Positions 898 through 35,362 are shown, counted from the first letter of the stretch. The stretch is 35,485 nt of DNA from Chromatiaceae bacterium (GCA_028277465.1 JANQGF010000243.1:1-35485), one strand, 5' to 3'. Translations and numbers: made by a program. Notes: a model not told the origin generated them from the sequence alone.

Positions 898-1144
898 TGT
901 CCGTCATCAAGGCAAGCGTGATCGAAGTCGATCCGGCGCTCGATGAGACTTCGATTCTCGGCTGGTTCTCTCCGGCCACCGATTCTGAGGATTCAGGCTC
1001 CATGACATCCAATGACCAGATCAGGCAACGAGCGCTCTCAACCGGTTTCCGGTATGGGAGGGACCATGCCGTCACTCTGAGCTGAGCCTGGACTGAGCGC
1101 GATCTCGGGAGGCCCAGCGCAAGGGCCTCCTGTCAGGACTCCGA

Positions 1145-1179
1145 CCCTGACCGGGAGCGACCCGGTCAGGGTTTTTTTT
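1145..1179 (+). terminator. Rho-independent terminator
   Basis: Stem ccctgaccggg / cccggtcaggg (11 bp, loop agcga) followed by TTTTTTTT. Confidence 0.8.
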
Positions 1180-1321
1180 GCCTGGCGGTGTGGCACCGCC
1201 CAAGGTCTTCGCGGAAGGCGTCGCGTGGTCAGCGCACGGGGTTCTGTATGCCCCCGCGGCAGGCTGGCGCACCCCCAGGGTGTCCGCTTCGTCTGTACCG
1301 ACTGCCTGGCGTCCGTGAAGT

Positions 1322-1398
1322 GACAACGTAGCTCATTTGGGTAGAGCAGCTGGTTGATAACCAGTGGGTAGCGGGTTCGAATCCCGCCGCTGTCTCCA
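1322..1398 (+). tRNA. tRNA-Ile (anticodon GAU), 77 nt with encoded CCA
   Basis: Manual cloverleaf fold. Acceptor gacaacg/cgctgtc has one A-C mismatch. D arm is gctc-atttgggta-gagc. Anticodon arm is gctgg-ttGATaa-ccagt, with U33 and A37. T arm is gcggg-ttcgaat-cccgc. Discriminator t, then cca. Confidence 0.75.
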
Positions 1399-1713
1399 TT
1401 GGCGACCAAGGGTTGCCCTTGGATTGGGCTTGAACCCCAATCCTCAACCAAGAGGCGAGCCCCAGCCACCGGACAGGGGGACCTCCGCCCCAGGGCGGGC
1501 CGGCAGGGAGGCCGAGATGGCAGCGTCGCCGTGATCTTGCGCGGCGGGCAAAGGTCGGGCCAGCTCCGCAGGGTATCAGGCTCCGGATGCAGGAGTGCAT
1601 CAGAGTGGATCGGGAGGATCCCGGACCGAGCCGGCGGAGTCCGCCCGGCAGACGCCCGTCGCCCATCGCGGCGGCGCGGGGCGAGCCCTTCTTTCAGCAC
1701 CATGACAGAGAGG

Positions 1714-1876
1714 TAAGGCGATTGCCGGAGACTCTCATACCAGATGGCGCCGGATTGACGGCTGCCTTCAAGGAGCGCCGGCAGGATCATAGCCGGGTTA
1801 TGTGACTGCTGGCGCGACACAGAAGGCAGGCGTCAAGACCAGCCAGGTGGTATGAGAGTCGACAGAAATCGCCTAA
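1714..1876 (-). repeat. Copy 1 (minus orientation) of a 163-bp structured repeat element with a long terminal inverted stem and internal hairpins. Candidate ncRNA or MITE.
   Basis: About 90% identical to 28081-28243 when reverse-complemented. Terminal pairing ggcgatt...gactctcatacca with tggtatgagagtc...aatcgcc. Internal hairpin ctgcc-ggcgctccttgaa-ggcag. Confidence 0.8.
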
Positions 1877-1959: not shown

Positions 1960-3177
1960 ATGAACATCATGGGATACAAGCGACAGGTCGTGGCCCAGCA
2001 CCAGCGTGCACTGGTGCTGAAGAACGGTGTGCTGGTCGAGATTCTGGGCCCGGGTGTCTACCACTGGCTGGATCTCACGGGCGCCGTCGAGATTCAGGTC
2101 TCGGATCTGACCAATCCGGAGCTGGTCCATCCGCACGCTGAGGTCTTGCGGAAGGAGTCCAGCCGGCTCTGGGACGCCTGGATCCAGACCATCGAGACCG
2201 GCGAGCGCGAGGCCGGGCTGGTTCGCTTCGATGGTCGTCTCGCTCACCTGCTGCCGCCCCTGAGCCGCCGCTTCTATTGGAAGGGACCCGTGCAGGTCGA
2301 TCTTGAGCGGATCGATCTGAGCCAGGACCCCGCGATCGAGCCGGCACTGCTGGAGGCCTTGCGCCAGACGCGTCATGCGCGGCCCTTCACCCAGGTCTCG
2401 GCTGGTTCACGGGAGAAGGCACGGGCCCTGGGCAGGGAGCTGGCGGGTATCGACTTCCTCGACAATGTCCTGGAGGAAGAGGTGGCGGATCACCAGCTGG
2501 GACTGCTGGTCATGGATGGTCGGTTGGTCCGGACCCTGGAGCCCGGCGTGCACGCCTTCTGGAACTTCGCCCGCAATCTGCAGGTGGAAGTGACGGACCT
2601 GCGACTGCAGGAGCTGGAGGTCCAGGGCCAGGAGATCCTGACCAGGGACAAGGTCAGCCTGCGGATCAATCTGACCGCCCACTATCGGGTGGTCGACCCG
2701 GTCAAGGTCCGGGCGATGTTGCCCCGTCCCAAGGACTACCTCTATCGCGAGCTACAGTTCAGTCTGCGCCAAGGAGTCGGCGACCGCACCCTGGACGAGC
2801 TGTTGAACGAGAAGGGGACACTGGAGCAGGGCATGCAGGAGCGCGTGCGAGCACGGGCCGAGGCCTATGGGATCCTGGTCGAGGAGCTGGGGATCAAGGA
2901 TGTCATCCTTCCGGGCGACATGAAGCAGATCCTCAATCAGGTGGTCGAGGCGGAGAAGGCGGCGCAAGCCAACCTGATCCGTCGCCGCGAGGAAACGGCG
3001 GCCACCCGGTCGTTGCTCAACACGGCCAAGCTGATGGAACAGAACCCGATCCTGCTGCGGTTGAAGGAGCTGGAGACCCTGGAGGGCGTCACGGATCGGG
3101 TTGGTAGCCTGACCCTCTTCGGCGGCATGGAGTCCCTGCTCCAAGGATTGGTGAGGATCGAGGCGCCGAAGGGTTGA
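1960..3177 (+). CDS. SPFH/band-7 (stomatin/prohibitin-like, slipin-type) domain protein, 405 aa
   Basis: The C-terminal half ...TRDKVSLRINLTAHYRVVDPVKV...IKDVILPGDMKQILNQVVEAEKAAQANLIRRREETAATRS... is SPFH-like. The N-terminal half has two related beta-rich repeats. RBS aggag 6 nt upstream. Confidence 0.7.
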   Translation: MNIMGYKRQVVAQHQRALVLKNGVLVEILGPGVYHWLDLTGAVEIQVSDLTNPELVHPHAEVLRKESSRLWDAWIQTIETGEREAGLVRFDGRLAHLLPPLSRRFYWKGPVQVDLERIDLSQDPAIEPALLEALRQTRHARPFTQVSAGSREKARALGRELAGIDFLDNVLEEEVADHQLGLLVMDGRLVRTLEPGVHAFWNFARNLQVEVTDLRLQELEVQGQEILTRDKVSLRINLTAHYRVVDPVKVRAMLPRPKDYLYRELQFSLRQGVGDRTLDELLNEKGTLEQGMQERVRARAEAYGILVEELGIKDVILPGDMKQILNQVVEAEKAAQANLIRRREETAATRSLLNTAKLMEQNPILLRLKELETLEGVTDRVGSLTLFGGMESLLQGLVRIEAPKG

Positions 3178-3187
3178 ACCAGAAACG

Positions 3188-3201
3188 GCGGTCGACCGCC
3201 G
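3188..3201. other. Perfect 14-bp palindrome ggcggtcgaccgcc in the SPFH-rtcB intergenic region
   Basis: Read directly from the sequence. No following T-run, so more likely a protein-binding site or RNA hairpin than a terminator. Confidence 0.5.
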
Positions 3202-3289
3202 GTGACTCGAGCGCGAGACCGATCGCACCCGAAGCGCCGGTGGTCGCCGAACCGGACCGAACGAGCATTTCAGCCGCCAGGAACCAACG

Positions 3290-4480
3290 ATGCCCATCAA
3301 ACGCGTCATCAGCGAAGGCCGTGTCCCGGTCATGATCTACACCGAAGACGTGGCCGAGAACGCCGTCCAGCAGCTCGAGAACGTCTCCCGGCTGCCCTTC
3401 ATCCATCACCATGTCGCCGCGATGCCCGATGTCCATTGGGGCATGGGGGCGACCATCGGCTCGGTGATCCCGACGCTCGGGGCCATCATCCCGGCCGCGG
3501 TCGGCGTCGACATCGGATGTGGCATGAAGGCGTTGCGGCTCTCCCTGCGCGCGGAGCAGCTTCCCGATTCGCTCGGCCAGCTGCGTTCAGCCATCGAGCA
3601 TGCGGTCCCGGTCGGGATGGCAGGCCACCCGGAGGATGCCTGGTGCGAGGAGGGGCTGAAGCGGGTGGCGCCCGGCCTGCAGCCGATCCTGGACAAACAC
3701 CCCAAGATCAGTGCCCGCTGGCAGAGCCAGCTCGGCAGCCTGGGCGGCGGCAACCACTTCATCGAGCTCTGTCTCGATCAGTCCCAGCAGGTCTGGATCA
3801 TGCTGCACTCCGGGTCGCGCGGGATCGGCAACCGTATCGGCATACACTTCATCGACTTGGCCAGGCGTGAGATGGAGCAGTGGCATATCCAGCTGCCGGA
3901 TCGGAATCTGGCCTACTTGCCGGAGGGCAGCCGCTATTTCGACGACTATGTCGAGGCGGTCGGTTGGGCGCAGGACTACGCGATGGAGAACCGGCGCCAG
4001 ATGATGCGGCTCATCCTGGATGTGCTGCAGGATGAGGTGCAGCGCGGCCAGCTACCGCCCTTCGCGGCAACCGACGAGGCGATCAACTGTCACCACAATT
4101 ATGTGGTACGCGAGCATCACTTCGGCAAGGAGGTCTATCTCACCCGCAAGGGTGCGATCCGGGCGCGCGAGGGCGACCTGGGGATCATCCCGGGCAGCAT
4201 GGGGGCACGCTCCTACATCGTGCGCGGTCTGGGCGACCCCATGTCCTTCTGCTCTTGCTCGCACGGGGCCGGACGGCGCATGAGCCGCGGCGAGGCGACG
4301 CGTCGTTTCACTCGCAGGGACCTGGAGGACCAGACCCAGGGCGTCGAGTGCCGCAAGGACAAGGGGGTGATCGACGAGATCCCGGCGGCCTACAAGGACA
4401 TCGACGCGGTGATGGCGAGCCAGAACGACCTGGTCGAGGTCGTGCATACTTTGAAGCAGGTGTTGACGGTCAAGGGTTGA
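3290..4480 (+). CDS. rtcB: RNA-splicing ligase RtcB (3'-phosphate/5'-hydroxyl RNA ligase), 396 aa
   Basis: Hallmark motifs PDVHWGMGATIGSV, GGGNHFIE and CSCSHGAGR. Length matches the RtcB family. Confidence 0.9.
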   Translation: MPIKRVISEGRVPVMIYTEDVAENAVQQLENVSRLPFIHHHVAAMPDVHWGMGATIGSVIPTLGAIIPAAVGVDIGCGMKALRLSLRAEQLPDSLGQLRSAIEHAVPVGMAGHPEDAWCEEGLKRVAPGLQPILDKHPKISARWQSQLGSLGGGNHFIELCLDQSQQVWIMLHSGSRGIGNRIGIHFIDLARREMEQWHIQLPDRNLAYLPEGSRYFDDYVEAVGWAQDYAMENRRQMMRLILDVLQDEVQRGQLPPFAATDEAINCHHNYVVREHHFGKEVYLTRKGAIRAREGDLGIIPGSMGARSYIVRGLGDPMSFCSCSHGAGRRMSRGEATRRFTRRDLEDQTQGVECRKDKGVIDEIPAAYKDIDAVMASQNDLVEVVHTLKQVLTVKG

Positions 4481-5658: not shown

Positions 5659-7689
5659 ATGGACATGCCCAACGTGGACGCACCAGGGCCTGGGCAGCCC
5701 GAGGCGTTCGGCTCCAGGGGCCGAGTGGCCACTCCCAAGGTATCGCCTTGGACCCGCCGCCCAACCCCGGGCTTGACCGGGCGCTCCCGATACCGCGCTG
5801 GGGTGGCCGGCACGGTGGCGGTCTGGGGTGAGAAGGGGCTCGGCATCCGGCGCCTGCTCTTCCTTGGGACCGCCCTGCTCATGACGCTGGGGACGGGAAT
5901 GGGGCTCTACTCGGGTCACCTGACCAGCGAGTTGCATCGGAGCATGACCGAGCATGAGCGCGAGACCGATGCCTCGGTCGCAGCGGCTCGTGCGGCCTTC
6001 GCGGGTGCCAACCGGCTCAGCCTGGCGTTACGGGACCTCGCCCGCGCCGAGAACCCGCGGGGACTGGGTCTGCGAGCTAACGCGGTGAGTCGGGCCCTGG
6101 TCGCGAGTCAAGACCAACTGGACAGGATGCGCGTTCAGCTGCACCGTGGCGGCTGGCTGCCCGAGGCGACGGCGATCGTCGCCGTCACGCGTACGGAGAC
6201 CGAAGTCCAGACCAGTCTTGCACAGCTGGTGGAGGCCGTCGGCACCCAGATCGAGGCCGATGCCGCCGTGGCGGATCGCCATCGGCGCCTCAAAAGGGCA
6301 TTCAATCGCTACTTCCGGGCCAGCAGCAAGGTCGAGGTCTCGATGCGCACTCGGGCCTCTCGAGTACTCGCGATCGACCTGGTCGAGGCCGCCCAACAGG
6401 GGCGGTTGCAACGGCGTCTGGACCGCTTCTTCGAGCGCGAGATGTCCTGGGTGGCCACCAGCCGGGATCTGGTGAAGGACGGCCTCGAGCTGTTTCGACG
6501 AGCCACAGAGCTGCTCGCGAGCAGCGATCGAGCGGCACTTCGCGAGGGCCAGGAGGGGGTGCGGATCTACGCGAAGCGCTTGCAGGTCTACCGCCGTCTG
6601 CCCGACTCGGAGACACGCCGCATGCTGGCGACGGCGACCTCCGACTATGTCGCGTTGGCGTCTGGGGAGCCAACGCTGGAGGTGATCCGCGGTCGCGTAC
6701 TGACCGGTGGGGCGGCCCGCGCAGCGGCACTGGATCGCGCGCTGGCCGATTGCGACAGACTGAAGGGCCACATCTACGACCTGACCCAACGGCTGACGCA
6801 CCAGGCGCGCCAGGAGTCCGCAAGGCGCCAGAGCAGCCTGGAACGTCGACGCGCGCTGCTGCAGGCCGTCACCATTGCAGCCGGTATCCTGGTGCTCGCG
6901 CTGGTCTATCTCTTCCTCGCAAAGCGTGCGATTCGGCCCTTGGAACGCCTGACGGCGAGGATGCGACGCATCTCCGACGAGCTCGACCGCGGCGGCGACG
7001 GCAGCCTCGCGGACCAGGCACTGCCCACCGACGAACCGGCACTCGACGAGGTCAGGGCCATGACTCGGGCGTTGCGGTTACTGCAGCGTACCTTGGCCGA
7101 TCGCGAGCAGGCCCTGCAGCGCAAGCAGCTGGAGCTGCAGCGCTTGGCACATCACGACTTCCTGACCGGTCTGCCGAACCGGGCACTTCTGGCCGAACGC
7201 ATCGAGCAGGCCGTCCACCGTGCCGATCGCAATGGCCAATTCGTCGCCGTCGCGCTGCTCGATCTAGACGGCTTCAAGGCCGTCAATGATGAGTTCGGCC
7301 ATGACCTTGGCGACCAAATGCTCAAACGGGTCGCCGATCTGCTCACGGCCTCCGTGCGTCTGGTGGACACGGTGGCGCGCTGCGGCGGTGACGAGTTCGT
7401 CTTTCTATTGCCGGACCTGGAACAGCCGGAAGACGCCGAGCCAGTCCTGAGAAGGACCCTGAACCGGATCGGTGAGCCGTCGCGCCTGGACGGAGGGATC
7501 CGCGTCCAAGTGAAAGCAAGCATCGGCTACACCCTCTACCCCCTGGATGACAATACGGGCGATACCCTGATTCGGCATGCCGATCAAGCCATGTACGACG
7601 CCAAGCGGAGCGGTGGCAACCAGCTTTGGGTCTATGGAGACGACGGCAGCACTCGCCCGGTCGGCCCCGCTCCGATGGGTGCGCCGTGA
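5659..7689 (+). CDS. Membrane-anchored sensor diguanylate cyclase (periplasmic/coiled sensor region, HAMP-like linker, GGDEF domain)
   Basis: TM segment IRRLLFLGTALLMTLGTGMGLY. The C-terminal GGDEF domain has an intact RCGGDEF motif and DGFKAVND. The start at 5659 is uncertain. Confidence 0.75.
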   Translation: MDMPNVDAPGPGQPEAFGSRGRVATPKVSPWTRRPTPGLTGRSRYRAGVAGTVAVWGEKGLGIRRLLFLGTALLMTLGTGMGLYSGHLTSELHRSMTEHERETDASVAAARAAFAGANRLSLALRDLARAENPRGLGLRANAVSRALVASQDQLDRMRVQLHRGGWLPEATAIVAVTRTETEVQTSLAQLVEAVGTQIEADAAVADRHRRLKRAFNRYFRASSKVEVSMRTRASRVLAIDLVEAAQQGRLQRRLDRFFEREMSWVATSRDLVKDGLELFRRATELLASSDRAALREGQEGVRIYAKRLQVYRRLPDSETRRMLATATSDYVALASGEPTLEVIRGRVLTGGAARAAALDRALADCDRLKGHIYDLTQRLTHQARQESARRQSSLERRRALLQAVTIAAGILVLALVYLFLAKRAIRPLERLTARMRRISDELDRGGDGSLADQALPTDEPALDEVRAMTRALRLLQRTLADREQALQRKQLELQRLAHHDFLTGLPNRALLAERIEQAVHRADRNGQFVAVALLDLDGFKAVNDEFGHDLGDQMLKRVADLLTASVRLVDTVARCGGDEFVFLLPDLEQPEDAEPVLRRTLNRIGEPSRLDGGIRVQVKASIGYTLYPLDDNTGDTLIRHADQAMYDAKRSGGNQLWVYGDDGSTRPVGPAPMGAP

Positions 7690-12468: not shown

Positions 12469-12821
12469 AAGTTCTGTGGATAAGTCTGGGGATAGGCTTT
12501 GGAGATCGCTCGCCAGGCCACGCCACTGTCACAATTCCGTCCGCTTGGCAAAGATCTGACCAGTTACTCAATAATATTATTTTTCAATGTGTTGAAGGAT
12601 TTCGTTCGATAGCCACTCAAGAGGGTCTTGACAAATCTGCCGCAACCGGGATGTCCAATCGGGTCTGTGAATGAACAAGCCCTTCGGGCGGGAACAGGCG
12701 TCCGTTGGGCCCGCAGGCCGAGACCCGCCGGGCGCGTGAGCGCGAGTCGCAACCCCGGGTCGAGAGGCCCACTTCAACGCGCACTCCTTCACGGTTTGCG
12801 CGAGTGAGTCAAGCGAGTATC

Positions 12822-13457
12822 ATGCTCGCAAATTCCGAGCCGTATCCAACTATGTTGCCACTGAATCAACAGGTACTGCGAACGGATTTGGCGGGTATGC
12901 CCCTGGAATGGGTCAACTACCGCGTCGCGGCCCGACTCTATTTCTTGGGTCAGGTCGCATACTCCTGCGGGGACCTGCTCTTCCTGCTGCGCGGCGGGAT
13001 CAATGCCCTCACCCGGGTCCAGAGCCAGCTCCAGATCCACTCCATCATCGCGACCTACGGCATTCATCACGCCCTGAACAAGCTTCAGGAAGACTATGTG
13101 CCGCCGCTGTCGAATCGCACCCTCTTTCAGCGCGACGACCATATCTGCATGTACTGTGGGCAGCGTTTCTCGCCGCGTCATCTCTCGCGAGACCATGTTC
13201 GCCCCTCCAGCAAAGGTGGTCAGGACCAGTGGAACAATGTGGTCACGGCTTGCGTGCGCTGTAACAACCACAAGGCCGGGCGCTCGCCCGAAGATGCGGG
13301 CATGGAGCTGCTGGCCGTCCCTTTCACACCGACCCATGCCGAGTACATCTATTTGATGGGCCGTAATGTCCTGGCAGATCAAATGCAGTTCCTGCGCGCC
13401 CACTTTCCCCGAACCAGCCCATTGCATCGGAGGCTCGATCGAGGAAGGCCCGTATGA
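12822..13457 (+). CDS. HNH endonuclease family protein (211 aa)
   Basis: HNH motif CMYCGQRFSPRHLSRDHVRPSSKGGQDQWNNVVTACVRCNNHKAGR. The ATGA stop/start overlaps the next gene. Confidence 0.7.
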   Translation: MLANSEPYPTMLPLNQQVLRTDLAGMPLEWVNYRVAARLYFLGQVAYSCGDLLFLLRGGINALTRVQSQLQIHSIIATYGIHHALNKLQEDYVPPLSNRTLFQRDDHICMYCGQRFSPRHLSRDHVRPSSKGGQDQWNNVVTACVRCNNHKAGRSPEDAGMELLAVPFTPTHAEYIYLMGRNVLADQMQFLRAHFPRTSPLHRRLDRGRPV

Positions 13458-27556: not shown

Positions 27557-27656
27557 GCTCCGAGTTGCAGACGCGCGGGCGACACCTGCCGCCCCGCCCG
27601 CATTGGCTACCGACAGTTGCCGCGGTACCCACGCGCCCGCGGCCCCATTCCCCTTC

Positions 27657-28049
27657 TTACTCGGCCTTCATCTCATAGGTGATGGCCGAGAGCGTGGCGC
27701 CCTGAGGATCCTGAAAGACGCAGAAACGGCCGACGGTGGGAATATCCTGGGGCGGCAACAGCACCTTTCCCCCCAATTCGACGACCTTGGCGGCCATGGC
27801 GTCGACGTCCTCGACCGTGACATAGGCGCCCCATTGGGGTGGCGCACCGGCGGCCTGGGGTGGGATGGGCATCATGCCGGCGACCTGCTTGCCGGCGACC
27901 TCGATCACCGAGTAAATGGTGTCGCCCATGTTGCTGTCCTTGATGTCCCAACCGAAAAGCTGGTGGTAGAAGGACTTGGCGGCATCCATGTCGGTCGTCA
28001 TCAGCTCGTTCCAGCTGAAGGCGCCCGGGGTCGAAAAGACATCGCTCAC
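27657..28049 (-). CDS. VOC/glyoxalase-bleomycin-resistance superfamily protein (130 aa)
   Basis: Typical VOC beta-alpha-beta-beta-beta modules: FSWNELMTTDMDAAKSFYHQLFGW, and CVFQDPQG near the C-terminus. Confidence 0.7.
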   Translation of the reverse strand: MSDVFSTPGAFSWNELMTTDMDAAKSFYHQLFGWDIKDSNMGDTIYSVIEVAGKQVAGMMPIPPQAAGAPPQWGAYVTVEDVDAMAAKVVELGGKVLLPPQDIPTVGRFCVFQDPQGATLSAITYEMKAE

Positions 28050-28080
28050 TGCAACCTCCTGATGTGTGTTGGCATCGGTC

Positions 28081-28243
28081 TTAGGCGATTTCTGTCAATT
28101 CTCATCCCACCTGGCTTGTCTTGACGCCCGCCTTCTGCGTCGCGCCAGCAGTCACATCGCGCGGCGATGCTCCTGCCGGCGCTCCTTGAAGGCAGACGCC
28201 AATCCGGCGCCATCTGGCATGAGAATTTCCGGCAATCGCCTTA
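28081..28243 (+). repeat. Copy 2 (plus orientation) of the 163-bp structured repeat element
   Basis: About 90% identical to the reverse complement of 1714-1876. Terminal stem ggcgatttctgtcaattctcat... pairs with ...atgagaatttccggcaatcgcc. Same internal hairpin ctgcc-ggcgctccttgaa-ggcag. Confidence 0.8.
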
Positions 28244-28303
28244 TCGGTCAGTCCTTCCTATAGTCGAGGAACGCGGAAGGTGCAAATCGGGAAGATCGAT
28301 GGG

Positions 28304-29644
28304 TCAGAAATTCCAGCGCAGTCCGGCGGTTAGCACATTGCTGCGACGCCTGCCGTCCTCCTCCAGACTGGAATCCAGCTTCAGGTTCAAGTAGAGGTAG
28401 CGCTCGAAGTCCTTGAGGGCGTATCGGACTCCGACCACGCCGTACTTGAGGCGATAGTCGCCCGCCAGCGGTTGCCCGGGGGCGGGCTCGAGCCAGTTCC
28501 AGCCGAAGGTGCCCCACCATTTGCCACGCAGCCGACGCTGTCCGTAGAGCTCCCACCCGAATCCGTCGAAGTAGTGGCCTTGGTCGGTGGTTTCATGATT
28601 GCGAAGCCGGGCGACGACGGTCCCGAGATACCAGTCATCGCTGAACCAGCGGGCCCCGAGCGCCAATGCCTCGGCGTTGCCGTGGATGCCCAGGCCGCGC
28701 AGCCTCGGGCTCAGATGGTTCGGAATCTGAGCGTGGTTGTAAGCGATCCCGAAGGAGAAGTTGGTGCTCGTCGCCAGGAGGGCGCTGAGACCGATCGCCC
28801 GGCCATAGTGGGCACCCTGGACGTCTGGTATGGGCTCCCCGCTCTGTAGCTGGACATTTAGGCTGAAGGGCTCGAAGCCCAGCAACTTGGGCAGGACATC
28901 CAAATGGACCCGGGTCTGGATGGCTTGCTCCGCCCGGCCGGTGCCTGTGTAGCCGCCGTCCGTCCCGGCGTTGTAGGTGCCGACGGCCTGCCCGCCGGTG
29001 CCGGCGAAACGGTCGGTGAAGCTGGTAACCTTGTAGTAGACGGACCAAGTCTTGCCGATCACCAGGAAGAGGTTGGGCGACTCGAAGCTGAGATAGTGCA
29101 GACGCGGGAAGAAGCTGTCGCCGCGCCCCCCCGATGGGGAGTTTCCGTTGGCCAGGGCCGCAATCTCGTCGAGCAGCTTGAAGCCGGCCTCGCCGCGGAT
29201 CGACAACCACTTCTGCGGCATCACTTGATAGCGGCCCTGGACGCCGATCCTGGAACTGCCGTCCTCGATACTCTGTCGCTCGGAGGTCGCGCGGAAACGC
29301 ACCCTTAGACTGCCGTAGACGGAAAAGAGGTTCGGCTGCTCCGAGGGGGTGTCCTTGGGCGTGGTCGCGGCCTCGCGCTGGATGGTCCGCTGCTGCTGCG
29401 TCAAGGGGTCTTCCTCGGCCTCCTCCTCGCGCGCTCGGGCCTGCGTCTCGCCCGTATCGGTGACTCGTTCCCGCGCCTTGGGCGGCGCCTCCGCGCCGAG
29501 GGCAGACGTGGCGCGCCCCGTGAGCCCGAGGCAGAGCAATGCGACGCCGATCCAAACGACTCCAGGGGACAGGGGTCCCGCCTTCGAGCCCCCCCTCAGG
29601 CTGCGACCAACGAACCCGGGAGCGAGCGGACGAGGCTCAGTCAC
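28304..29644 (-). CDS. Outer-membrane beta-barrel porin (446 aa), C-terminal ...GLRWNF
   Basis: Signal-like segment VVWIGVALLCLGLTGRATSALGA. Alternating beta-strand pattern and an aromatic C-terminal residue. GTG start overlaps the glutaminase stop by 8 bp. Exact start uncertain. Confidence 0.65.
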   Translation of the reverse strand: MTEPRPLAPGFVGRSLRGGSKAGPLSPGVVWIGVALLCLGLTGRATSALGAEAPPKARERVTDTGETQARAREEEAEEDPLTQQQRTIQREAATTPKDTPSEQPNLFSVYGSLRVRFRATSERQSIEDGSSRIGVQGRYQVMPQKWLSIRGEAGFKLLDEIAALANGNSPSGGRGDSFFPRLHYLSFESPNLFLVIGKTWSVYYKVTSFTDRFAGTGGQAVGTYNAGTDGGYTGTGRAEQAIQTRVHLDVLPKLLGFEPFSLNVQLQSGEPIPDVQGAHYGRAIGLSALLATSTNFSFGIAYNHAQIPNHLSPRLRGLGIHGNAEALALGARWFSDDWYLGTVVARLRNHETTDQGHYFDGFGWELYGQRRLRGKWWGTFGWNWLEPAPGQPLAGDYRLKYGVVGVRYALKDFERYLYLNLKLDSSLEEDGRRRSNVLTAGLRWNF

Positions 29645-35326: not shown

Positions 35327-35362
35327 CTTAGTAATGATTCAGAAACAACCTACACACCGTAG
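35327..35362. repeat. Copy 2 of the 36-bp perfect direct repeat (see 23-58), embedded in a hairpin-rich non-coding region 35190-35485
   Basis: Exact match to 23-58. Adjacent hairpins ttgggg-tgaggaacgaa-ccccaa, gttgggc-ttcgctctcgctcg-gcccac, ttgggca-aagcgaagcg-tgcccaa and gctag-tcg-gctagc. Partial internal duplication caacctaca(a/c)accg at 35250 and 35347. Confidence 0.85.

Follow-up and report, generated by a model that had tools for sequence, protein, structure and literature searches.

MITEs are about 50-1000 bp in size. Among other short bacterial repeats, the Correia (NEMIS) elements of Neisseria and the ERIC/IRU elements of enterobacteria are intergenic, measure 100-160 bp, form long hairpins when co-transcribed and can affect the mRNA processing of neighbouring genes, and REP units span roughly 20-40 nt. 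The ends of the IS427 group of insertion sequences begin with GG-, with duplications of 2-4 bp. Bacterial MITEs that share their ends with IS5-family elements are known: those of P. gingivalis share ends with ISPg1/3/4/9, and the ATR element of Neisseria shares ends with ISNme1 (PMC4596501). Within the IS5 family, the IS1031 group is described as typically using insertion sites of 3 nt (PMC2516522). TWA and C|TNA|G targets have been described for the PHIS superfamily of DDE transposases, which includes IS5 and is characterised by 3-bp TWA or TNA duplications within short palindromes (PMC4482050).

We analysed a 35,485-nt stretch of DNA from a Chromatiaceae bacterium (GCA_028277465.1 JANQGF010000243.1:1-35485), hereafter the window, in which a repeat at 28081-28243 separates a porin gene from a VOC/glyoxalase-family gene. 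This repeat is very probably one copy of a MITE whose family is scattered through purple sulfur bacteria, that is, a fairly ordinary insertion and not a regulator built for the glutaminase-porin operon. With its Y|TWA|R target, the family is apparently undescribed, and the literature that we searched contained no report of MITEs in Chromatiaceae.

Two inverted copies in the window

The sequence-only reading of the window had marked a structured repeat between the porin and VOC genes and a second copy of it, and both hold. A sharply bounded 163-nt repeat lies at 28081-28243, at the coordinates given in that reading, and its counterpart is inverted relative to it (Table 1). Repeat finding gives a 173-nt inverted match (88%) between 28081-28253 and 1704-1876, and BLAST aligns the two copies at 90% over 163 nt, a match far beyond chance. 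In pairwise alignment their similarity begins abruptly at TTAGGCGATT... and stops abruptly at ...AATCGCCTTA, and these limits are the TTA/TAA-flanked ends. The letters at 28081-28243 read TTA-GGCGATTTCTGTC...CCGGCAATCGCC-TTA; the terminal inverted repeats are imperfect and ~31 nt long, the right one containing a 7-nt block that is mismatched with respect to the left.

Table 1. Coordinates of the probable MITE copies in the window, their parts and the genes flanking the copy at 28081-28243.
Feature	Position	Strand	Remarks
Left target-site duplication (TTA)	28081..28083	+	Same trinucleotide at right end
Probable MITE body, 157 bp, non-coding imperfect palindrome	28084..28240	.	Family conservation falls sharply at both ends
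Left terminal inverted repeat (GGCGATTTCTGTCAATTCTCATCCCACCTGG)	28084..28114	+	Complementary to 28210-28240
Right terminal inverted repeat (...CCATCTGGCATGAGAATTTCCGGCAATCGCC)	28210..28240	+	Reverse complement of left repeat
Right target-site duplication (TTA)	28241..28243	+	Equals 28081-28083
Second probable MITE copy	1714..1876	-	88-90% identity to 28081-28243; opposite orientation
Porin gene, upstream neighbour	28304..29644	-	Pfam Porin_4; context, outside element
VOC/glyoxalase-family gene, downstream neighbour	27657..28049	-	Pfam Glyoxalase; context, outside element

The repeat at 28081-28243 is located downstream of the porin gene, 60 nt from its stop (28304), and upstream of the VOC gene, 31 nt from its start (28049), which is a GTG with AGGAGG 6 nt upstream. 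The other copy, flanked by TAA/TAA when read on the + strand, lies between tRNA-Ile(GAT) at 1322-1398 and an SPFH/Band-7 gene at 1960-3177. In three runs, short-read Logan contigs stop ~25-48 nt into the element at either end of both copies, one of them (L067) inside copy 1714-1876, and exact-protein look-ups with VOC, porin and SPFH returned only short Logan contigs ending inside the element. Such breaks are expected of a repeat in de Bruijn assembly, and a MITE explains why short-read assemblies of the source organism break at these points.

Two ORFs spanning the copies had been set aside as artefacts in the sequence-only reading, and the family bears this out. MLLPALLEG lies on the + strand of copy 28081-28243, and MILPALLEG inside ORF 1038-1820(-) at copy 1714-1876. 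The ATG of the MLLPALLEG frame occurs in 118 of 151 copies, its peptide varies (MLLSALLEG, MRLLSLLED, MRLLSRLEA and others), and the frame has no stop within the element and runs on into whatever flank follows. Gene calling by self-trained codon usage recovers the window genes that have Pfam support and never picks this frame. The main subfamily has a different internal ORF, which is not kept in frame by the window copies, and no conserved ORF is present in the family (151 copies).

Several further features of the window were recorded. The tRNA-Ile(GAT) gene (+), ~315 nt upstream of copy 1714-1876, stands alone and adjoins an HTH_3 repressor-like gene (238-837, -); this region may be the edge of an integrated element. 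An HNH endonuclease-domain gene (12705-13457, +) lies between priA and fructosamine-kinase genes and is unrelated to the MITE. An exact 36-nt direct repeat, CTTAGTAATGATTCAGAAACAACCTACACACCGTAG, with a GC content much below that of its surroundings, is found near both window ends (23-58 and 35327-35362), the first occurrence being followed by a short inverted repeat (ATGATTCAGAAACAA ... TTGTTTCTGAATCGT, about 30-95). It also occurs in contig L063 (5753-5816, 89% over 64 nt), has no Rfam match, and may represent another repeat family or an element boundary.

A dispersed family and its duplicated target

Two scans define the family. The first used a conserved 19-mer on one genome per species and returned 59 loci, mostly of Chromatiaceae, five of them in the isolate Lamprocystis purpurea DSM 4197; the isolate Thiorhodococcus minor DSM 11518 and a Thiohalocapsa MAG also carry the family. 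Since a 19-mer search word fixes the core as invariant, the second scan, of metagenomes, was anchored on the two ends only, and yielded at least 120 loci. Both scans pooled gave at least 166 full-length copies at no fewer than 155 distinct insertion sites in Chromatiaceae genomes and metagenomes. The element is multi-copy, with tens per genome: some MAGs hold ~13-20 or more copies each, and JTS-AC285 ~20 or more. A BLAST search of a plasmid collection returned no match to the element, and the single 19-mer match among viral contigs (L188) is a chance match without it.

In the 155-site set, 102 copies have a 157-nt body and 33 have a 156-nt body. Positions 1-163 of the family alignment are highly conserved, and conservation collapses at either boundary. 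The outer 7 nt on the left, GGCGATT, are nearly invariant over the 155 copies, as is CCGGCAATCGCC at the right end across the family, and the family ends, GGCGATT...AATCGCC, constitute imperfect terminal inverted repeats. At the gathering threshold, Rfam (Rfam 15) matches only the tRNA-Ile in the window, and no family matches the element; with E up to 10, the surroundings of 28081-28243 give one weak Ms_IGR-4 match (28321-28358) outside the element, and with E up to 1 nothing overlaps copy 1714-1876.

Flanking trinucleotides are identical at 117 of the 155 sites, against 58 expected, and none of 20,000 permutations reaches 117; the first sample had given 31 of 41. The duplicated triplet is TTA/TTA 59 times and TAA/TAA 55 times, with few cases of TGA/TGA and TCA/TCA. 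C or T precedes it at 140 of 155 sites, and A or G follows it at 120 of them. These preferences define a palindromic target, Y|TWA|R, whose central T(T/A)A is duplicated over 3 bp, as TTA/TTA at the window copy 28081-28243. Non-identical triplets flank 38 of the 155 copies, which is consistent with decay. That TTA and TAA are about equally frequent among near-identical copies is as expected for a palindromic target that is entered in either orientation.

Empty sites related to occupied ones are also available, as several copies lie, with exact junctions, inside another repeat family whose other members are unoccupied. These related sites carry a single TWA exactly where the occupied sites read TWA-element-TWA. 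For example, the occupied locus L073 reads ...GTAGGTTGCGT[TAA]-element-[TAA]GACGCC..., and the empty site in L138 reads ...GTAGGTTGCGT[TAA]GACGCC...; likewise, the TTA/TTA-flanked copy of L114 corresponds to a single TTA in L138, and the TAA/TAA-flanked copy of L092 to a single TAA in L114. For copy 28081-28243, the 22-mer that joins the two flanks (GCATCGGTCTTATCGGTCAGTC) is absent from JGI metagenomes. Target duplications and empty sites together indicate that the element arrived by insertion. The proposal, made from the sequence alone, that this is a mobile hairpin inserted between genes is thus supported by its sharp ends, inverted repeats, 3-bp duplication, related empty sites and presence at 155 unrelated sites. 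The repeat family that hosts these insertions is unrelated to the MITE (L138 ~6400-6720, L114 230-480, also L092, L160, L073 and L177) and contains ...ACGCAACCTACACCCACATG...GTGTAGGTTGGGTTAGGCGCGCTG...; the MITE entered it repeatedly at different TWA sites, and the related empty sites come from it.

A multi-copy, intergenic and palindromic repeat could also be a generic, host-maintained REP/BIME-type unit instead of a transposable element. We find this hardly credible for a 157-bp unit, far longer than REP units, which is bounded by terminal inverted repeats and a target duplication, for which precise empty sites exist, and which does not form the clustered inverted doublets of REPINs, with more than one full copy at only 9 of 156 loci. 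The REP/REPIN (RAYT-associated) class was rejected on the 157-bp unit, the single copies and the 3-bp duplication. Nor is the element a generic REP sequence present in every intergenic region, an outcome that the sequence-only reading had named as fatal to its case: it occupies two of the ~19 intergenic regions of the window.

Almost all copies (150 of 155) are intergenic. Of 116 neighbouring gene 3' ends, 33 have a stop codon that shares bases with the duplicated triplet, with stop-in-TWA offsets of -3 and -4 (for example L029 6796-6958 and L062 2716-2878); insertion on a stop codon regenerates the stop and leaves the gene intact. At a genomic GC content of ~65%, a preference for TWA directs insertions towards spacers and stop codons.

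Precise insertion, inverted repeats, the TWA duplication, the lack of a transposase and the many copies lead us to regard the element as a MITE. Having no transposase, it would be mobilised in trans. The driver is most likely a chromosomal DDE transposase of the IS5/PIF-Harbinger (PHIS) type, encoded by an IS with matching GGCGATT... ends. This assignment is probably correct as far as the length and sequence of the duplication and target can tell, namely a duplication that is AT-rich and short (2-4 bp; TWA or TNA) and lies within a palindrome, here Y|TWA|R. The element itself inserts precisely into Y|TWA|R, with duplication of the central TWA. Copy 28081-28243 entered a TTA that separated the porin stop from the VOC start, and its presence there reflects this target preference, not any need of the glutaminase-porin operon; in GC-rich genomes, Y|TWA|R is found mainly at stop codons and in intergenic DNA. 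A search of the window and of ~1.24 Mb of loci revealed neither an autonomous element nor a transposase gene with matching ends. Stray end matches in L015 and L031 and paired-end scans at 300-4000 nt led to no parent IS; all-against-all clustering of 1,866 ORFs for multi-copy proteins and Pfam searches of 18 window proteins returned no transposase. A 526-nt end-bounded element in L126, considered as a parent IS, proved to be a MITE copy interrupted by another repeat.

Some family members depart from the usual form. Contig L126 (700-4470) holds a cluster of divergent members, in which copy 3111-3266 is nested within copy 2969-3295 and copy 3938-4463 is split by ~385 nt belonging to another repeat. 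In L061 (5259-5290), a 20-nt remnant consisting of the two ends only (GGCGATTTCCGGCAATTGCC) lies between TTA and TCA and abuts a full copy; it resembles a second insertion into the duplicated site whose interior was lost afterwards, or an abortive event. Truncated copies in L063 (4892-4966) and L013 (129-259) are 92-97% identical to the window copy 28081-28243, on contigs of ~53% GC binned as Chlorobium and Candidatus Phaeomarinobacter. Transfer across phyla was considered for these and is weakened by L063, which also carries the 36-nt repeat of the window ends and is therefore probably a mis-binned contig of the same organism. A binning error, or a low-GC island within that organism, seems more likely than inter-phylum transfer.

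Hairpin structure and the porin-VOC neighbourhood

Predicted RNA folds of the repeat at 28081-28243 reach -78.3 kcal/mol (z -5.7) on the + strand and -104.9 kcal/mol (z -10.1) on the - strand, and DNA parameters give -40.8 and -50.5 kcal/mol, respectively. The more stable hairpin belongs to the minus strand, on which the porin and VOC genes read in sense. The complement of the window's + strand is the more stable one in 147 of 155 copies, and RNAalifold yields -44.3 kcal/mol for the stable strand versus -6.0 kcal/mol for the other.

Covariation was analysed in 90 copies. Among 47 predicted consensus pairs, 30 display two-sided changes; paired cells amount to 94.7%, versus 85.3% after shuffling (none of 500 shuffles is as high as observed) and 34-50% if the partners are displaced by 1-3 columns, and the covariation score is 0.343 versus 0.168. 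Parsimony on 41 copies counts 44 Watson-Crick-to-G·U events versus 14 to A·C. Aligning arm against arm, independently of any folding program, isolated mismatches are G·T on the stable strand 183 times versus 30 times on the other strand. Clustered internal-loop mismatches, which dominate the transition counts of the in-register arm comparison, are symmetric (677 versus 636), and the asymmetry is therefore confined to the helices. A replication-strand mutation bias was considered as its cause and is unsupported, as the stable strand has a positive flanking GC skew at 51 of 113 loci. The entire body, beyond the ends, is thus kept as a hairpin by compensatory change, with G·U tolerated on one strand.

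It is apparently among propagating lineages that this constraint operates. If both ends co-evolved with a single transposase, covariation close to them could be accounted for, but not the strand bias or the covariation of the central helices, and whole-hairpin covariation with one-stranded G·U is not predicted by simple double-strand cut-and-paste transposition. It is conceivable, albeit unlikely, that propagation or a selected function depends on one strand folding in single-stranded form, either as ssDNA during mobilisation or as RNA. A strand-specific hairpin intermediate would explain both the body-wide compensatory changes and the G·T bias. If this were true, an element with terminal inverted repeats and a target duplication would nevertheless have a strand-specific structured intermediate. 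The strand-specific covarying hairpin is the one point worth pursuing, as it hints that single-strand structure matters for spread.

The strand-specific structure, with its compensatory hairpin, its G·T excess and a stable strand that is nearly always the same, would also be explained if the element moved as a single-stranded hairpin by a non-DDE route, through an HUH/Y1 transposase on the model of IS200/IS605 or REP/RAYT, or through a tyrosine recombinase acting on a folded strand on the model of integron attC. Its ends even have a superficial likeness to attC cores, as with GTTAGGC and GCCTAAC at copy 1714-1876. We nonetheless judge this route quite improbable. The 3-bp duplication has a middle base that is variable yet matched (TTA, TAA, TGA, TCA), which fits a staggered cut, and the ratio of 59 TTA to 55 TAA fits orientation-free palindromic insertion and not homology-dependent recombination at a fixed core. 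The core-like motifs stand in the reverse order of attC, their outer base is usually Y/R and not G/C, and there are neither cassette ORFs nor arrays. IS200/IS605 and REP/RAYT elements are not known to make a target duplication or to have terminal inverted repeats, and an HUH route gives no account of either.

The sequence-only reading had also proposed that the repeat, in plus orientation and antisense to its neighbours, might act as an antisense or 3'-UTR-derived regulator of the glutaminase-porin operon. Orientation has little meaning for a near-palindrome, and calling it antisense is arbitrary, the best-folding strand being in sense with both porin and VOC. A dedicated cis- or trans-acting RNA regulator of this operon (antisense or 3'-UTR-derived small RNA) would suit the position in the porin 3' flank and the very stable, covariation-supported hairpin; it is extremely improbable on all other counts. 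The comparison of related intergenic regions that had been recommended goes against it: the closest porin homologues available are 63-75% identical, and in the three closest available glutaminase-porin loci the pair is kept, the gene downstream is different and no element follows the porin. As the VOC gene is not the neighbour of the porin in relatives, a strictly orthologous site could not be scored for presence or absence. Elsewhere, copies adjoin unrelated genes, across the 155 insertion sites. A consensus scan of 27600-28700 found neither a sigma-70-like promoter nor an intrinsic-terminator-like site, the element has no Rfam match, and target duplications and empty sites speak for arrival by insertion. 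Finally, copies are randomly oriented with respect to their neighbours. In tandem contexts the stable strand runs in sense at 24 copies and in antisense at 26, the counts are 21 and 34 where only one neighbour is known, and a smaller sample had given 12 versus 10. RNA-level selection by host transcription was for this reason rejected as what maintains the family.

Effects on neighbours would then be a by-product of insertion. Read-through from porin to VOC would carry an intercistronic hairpin of ~-105 kcal/mol, as modelled, which could impede, process or stabilise the RNA. Local co-option, in which the minus-strand hairpin within this read-through serves as an RNase III site, a block to 3' exonucleases or a transcription barrier and so uncouples or tunes porin and VOC expression, is compatible with a MITE origin as an added effect. 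We consider it unlikely. In its favour, both flanking genes have the stable strand as their sense strand, the element ends just 31 nt before the VOC start, so that any upstream VOC promoter now lies beyond the hairpin, and the Correia and ERIC elements offer an analogy for such effects. Against it, the hairpin is followed by no U-tract and no terminator-like site, and in the family the stable strand is not preferentially transcribed (24 versus 26 in tandem contexts, 21 versus 34 with one known neighbour); co-transcription effects accordingly do not maintain the family. A TTGACA hexamer on the minus strand, 12 nt from the element tip and facing VOC (region 28056-28103), is kept in most family members and could form hybrid promoters where the flank supplies a -10 box; at copy 28081-28243, this outward-facing TTGACA has no matching -10.

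Comparison with described elements

For annotation of the window, a false lead is removed, as there is probably no dedicated small RNA at this locus, and two spurious ORFs are flagged. The MITE family often lands on stop codons without disrupting genes, and its copies could be used to mark insertion polymorphism between strains and as bait in finding its transposase.

Integron attC sites resemble the family in being imperfect palindromes whose structure is kept over sequence, with the GTTAGGC / GCCTAAC core-like motifs, and are recognised as folded single strands. The assignment was rejected because the motif order is reversed (5'-YTWAGGC...GCCTWAR-3' versus 5'-RYYYAAC...GTTRRRY-3') and the MITE copies are single and scattered in ordinary intergenic regions. 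Moreover, the MITE is flanked by a variable and duplicated triplet, unlike the fixed crossover point of attC, and its 157 nt exceed the usual attC range. Correia and ERIC elements are likewise intergenic repeats that fold into a long hairpin, which for the present family is a predicted fold; Correia elements duplicate TA, whereas the MITE duplicates TWA, and there is no sequence similarity between them.

The IS5-family MITEs are similarly small, non-coding, multi-copy and mostly intergenic, with inverted repeats and a short duplication, and are also presumed to be mobilised in trans (PMC4596501). The Chromatiaceae family differs in its ends (GGCGATT... versus GAGAC.../ACGTC...) and in its uniform 3-bp TWA, compared with variable duplications in those MITEs. 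The IS1031 group of the IS5 family has the same 3-nt insertion site (PMC2516522); IS1031 and IS427 elements are autonomous, measure 800-1000 bp and encode a transposase, whereas the MITE has 157 bp and no gene. The likeness extends to PIF/Harbinger-Tourist and PHIS elements (IS5, PIF/Harbinger, NuwaII; PMC4482050), with which the family shares a 3-bp TWA in a short palindromic target and, as in C|TNA|G of PHIS, a C before and a purine after the triplet. PIF/Harbinger-Tourist elements are eukaryotic, and their likeness to the MITE is limited to the pattern of target and duplication, alongside the common form of a short non-autonomous derivative that can fold along its entire length.
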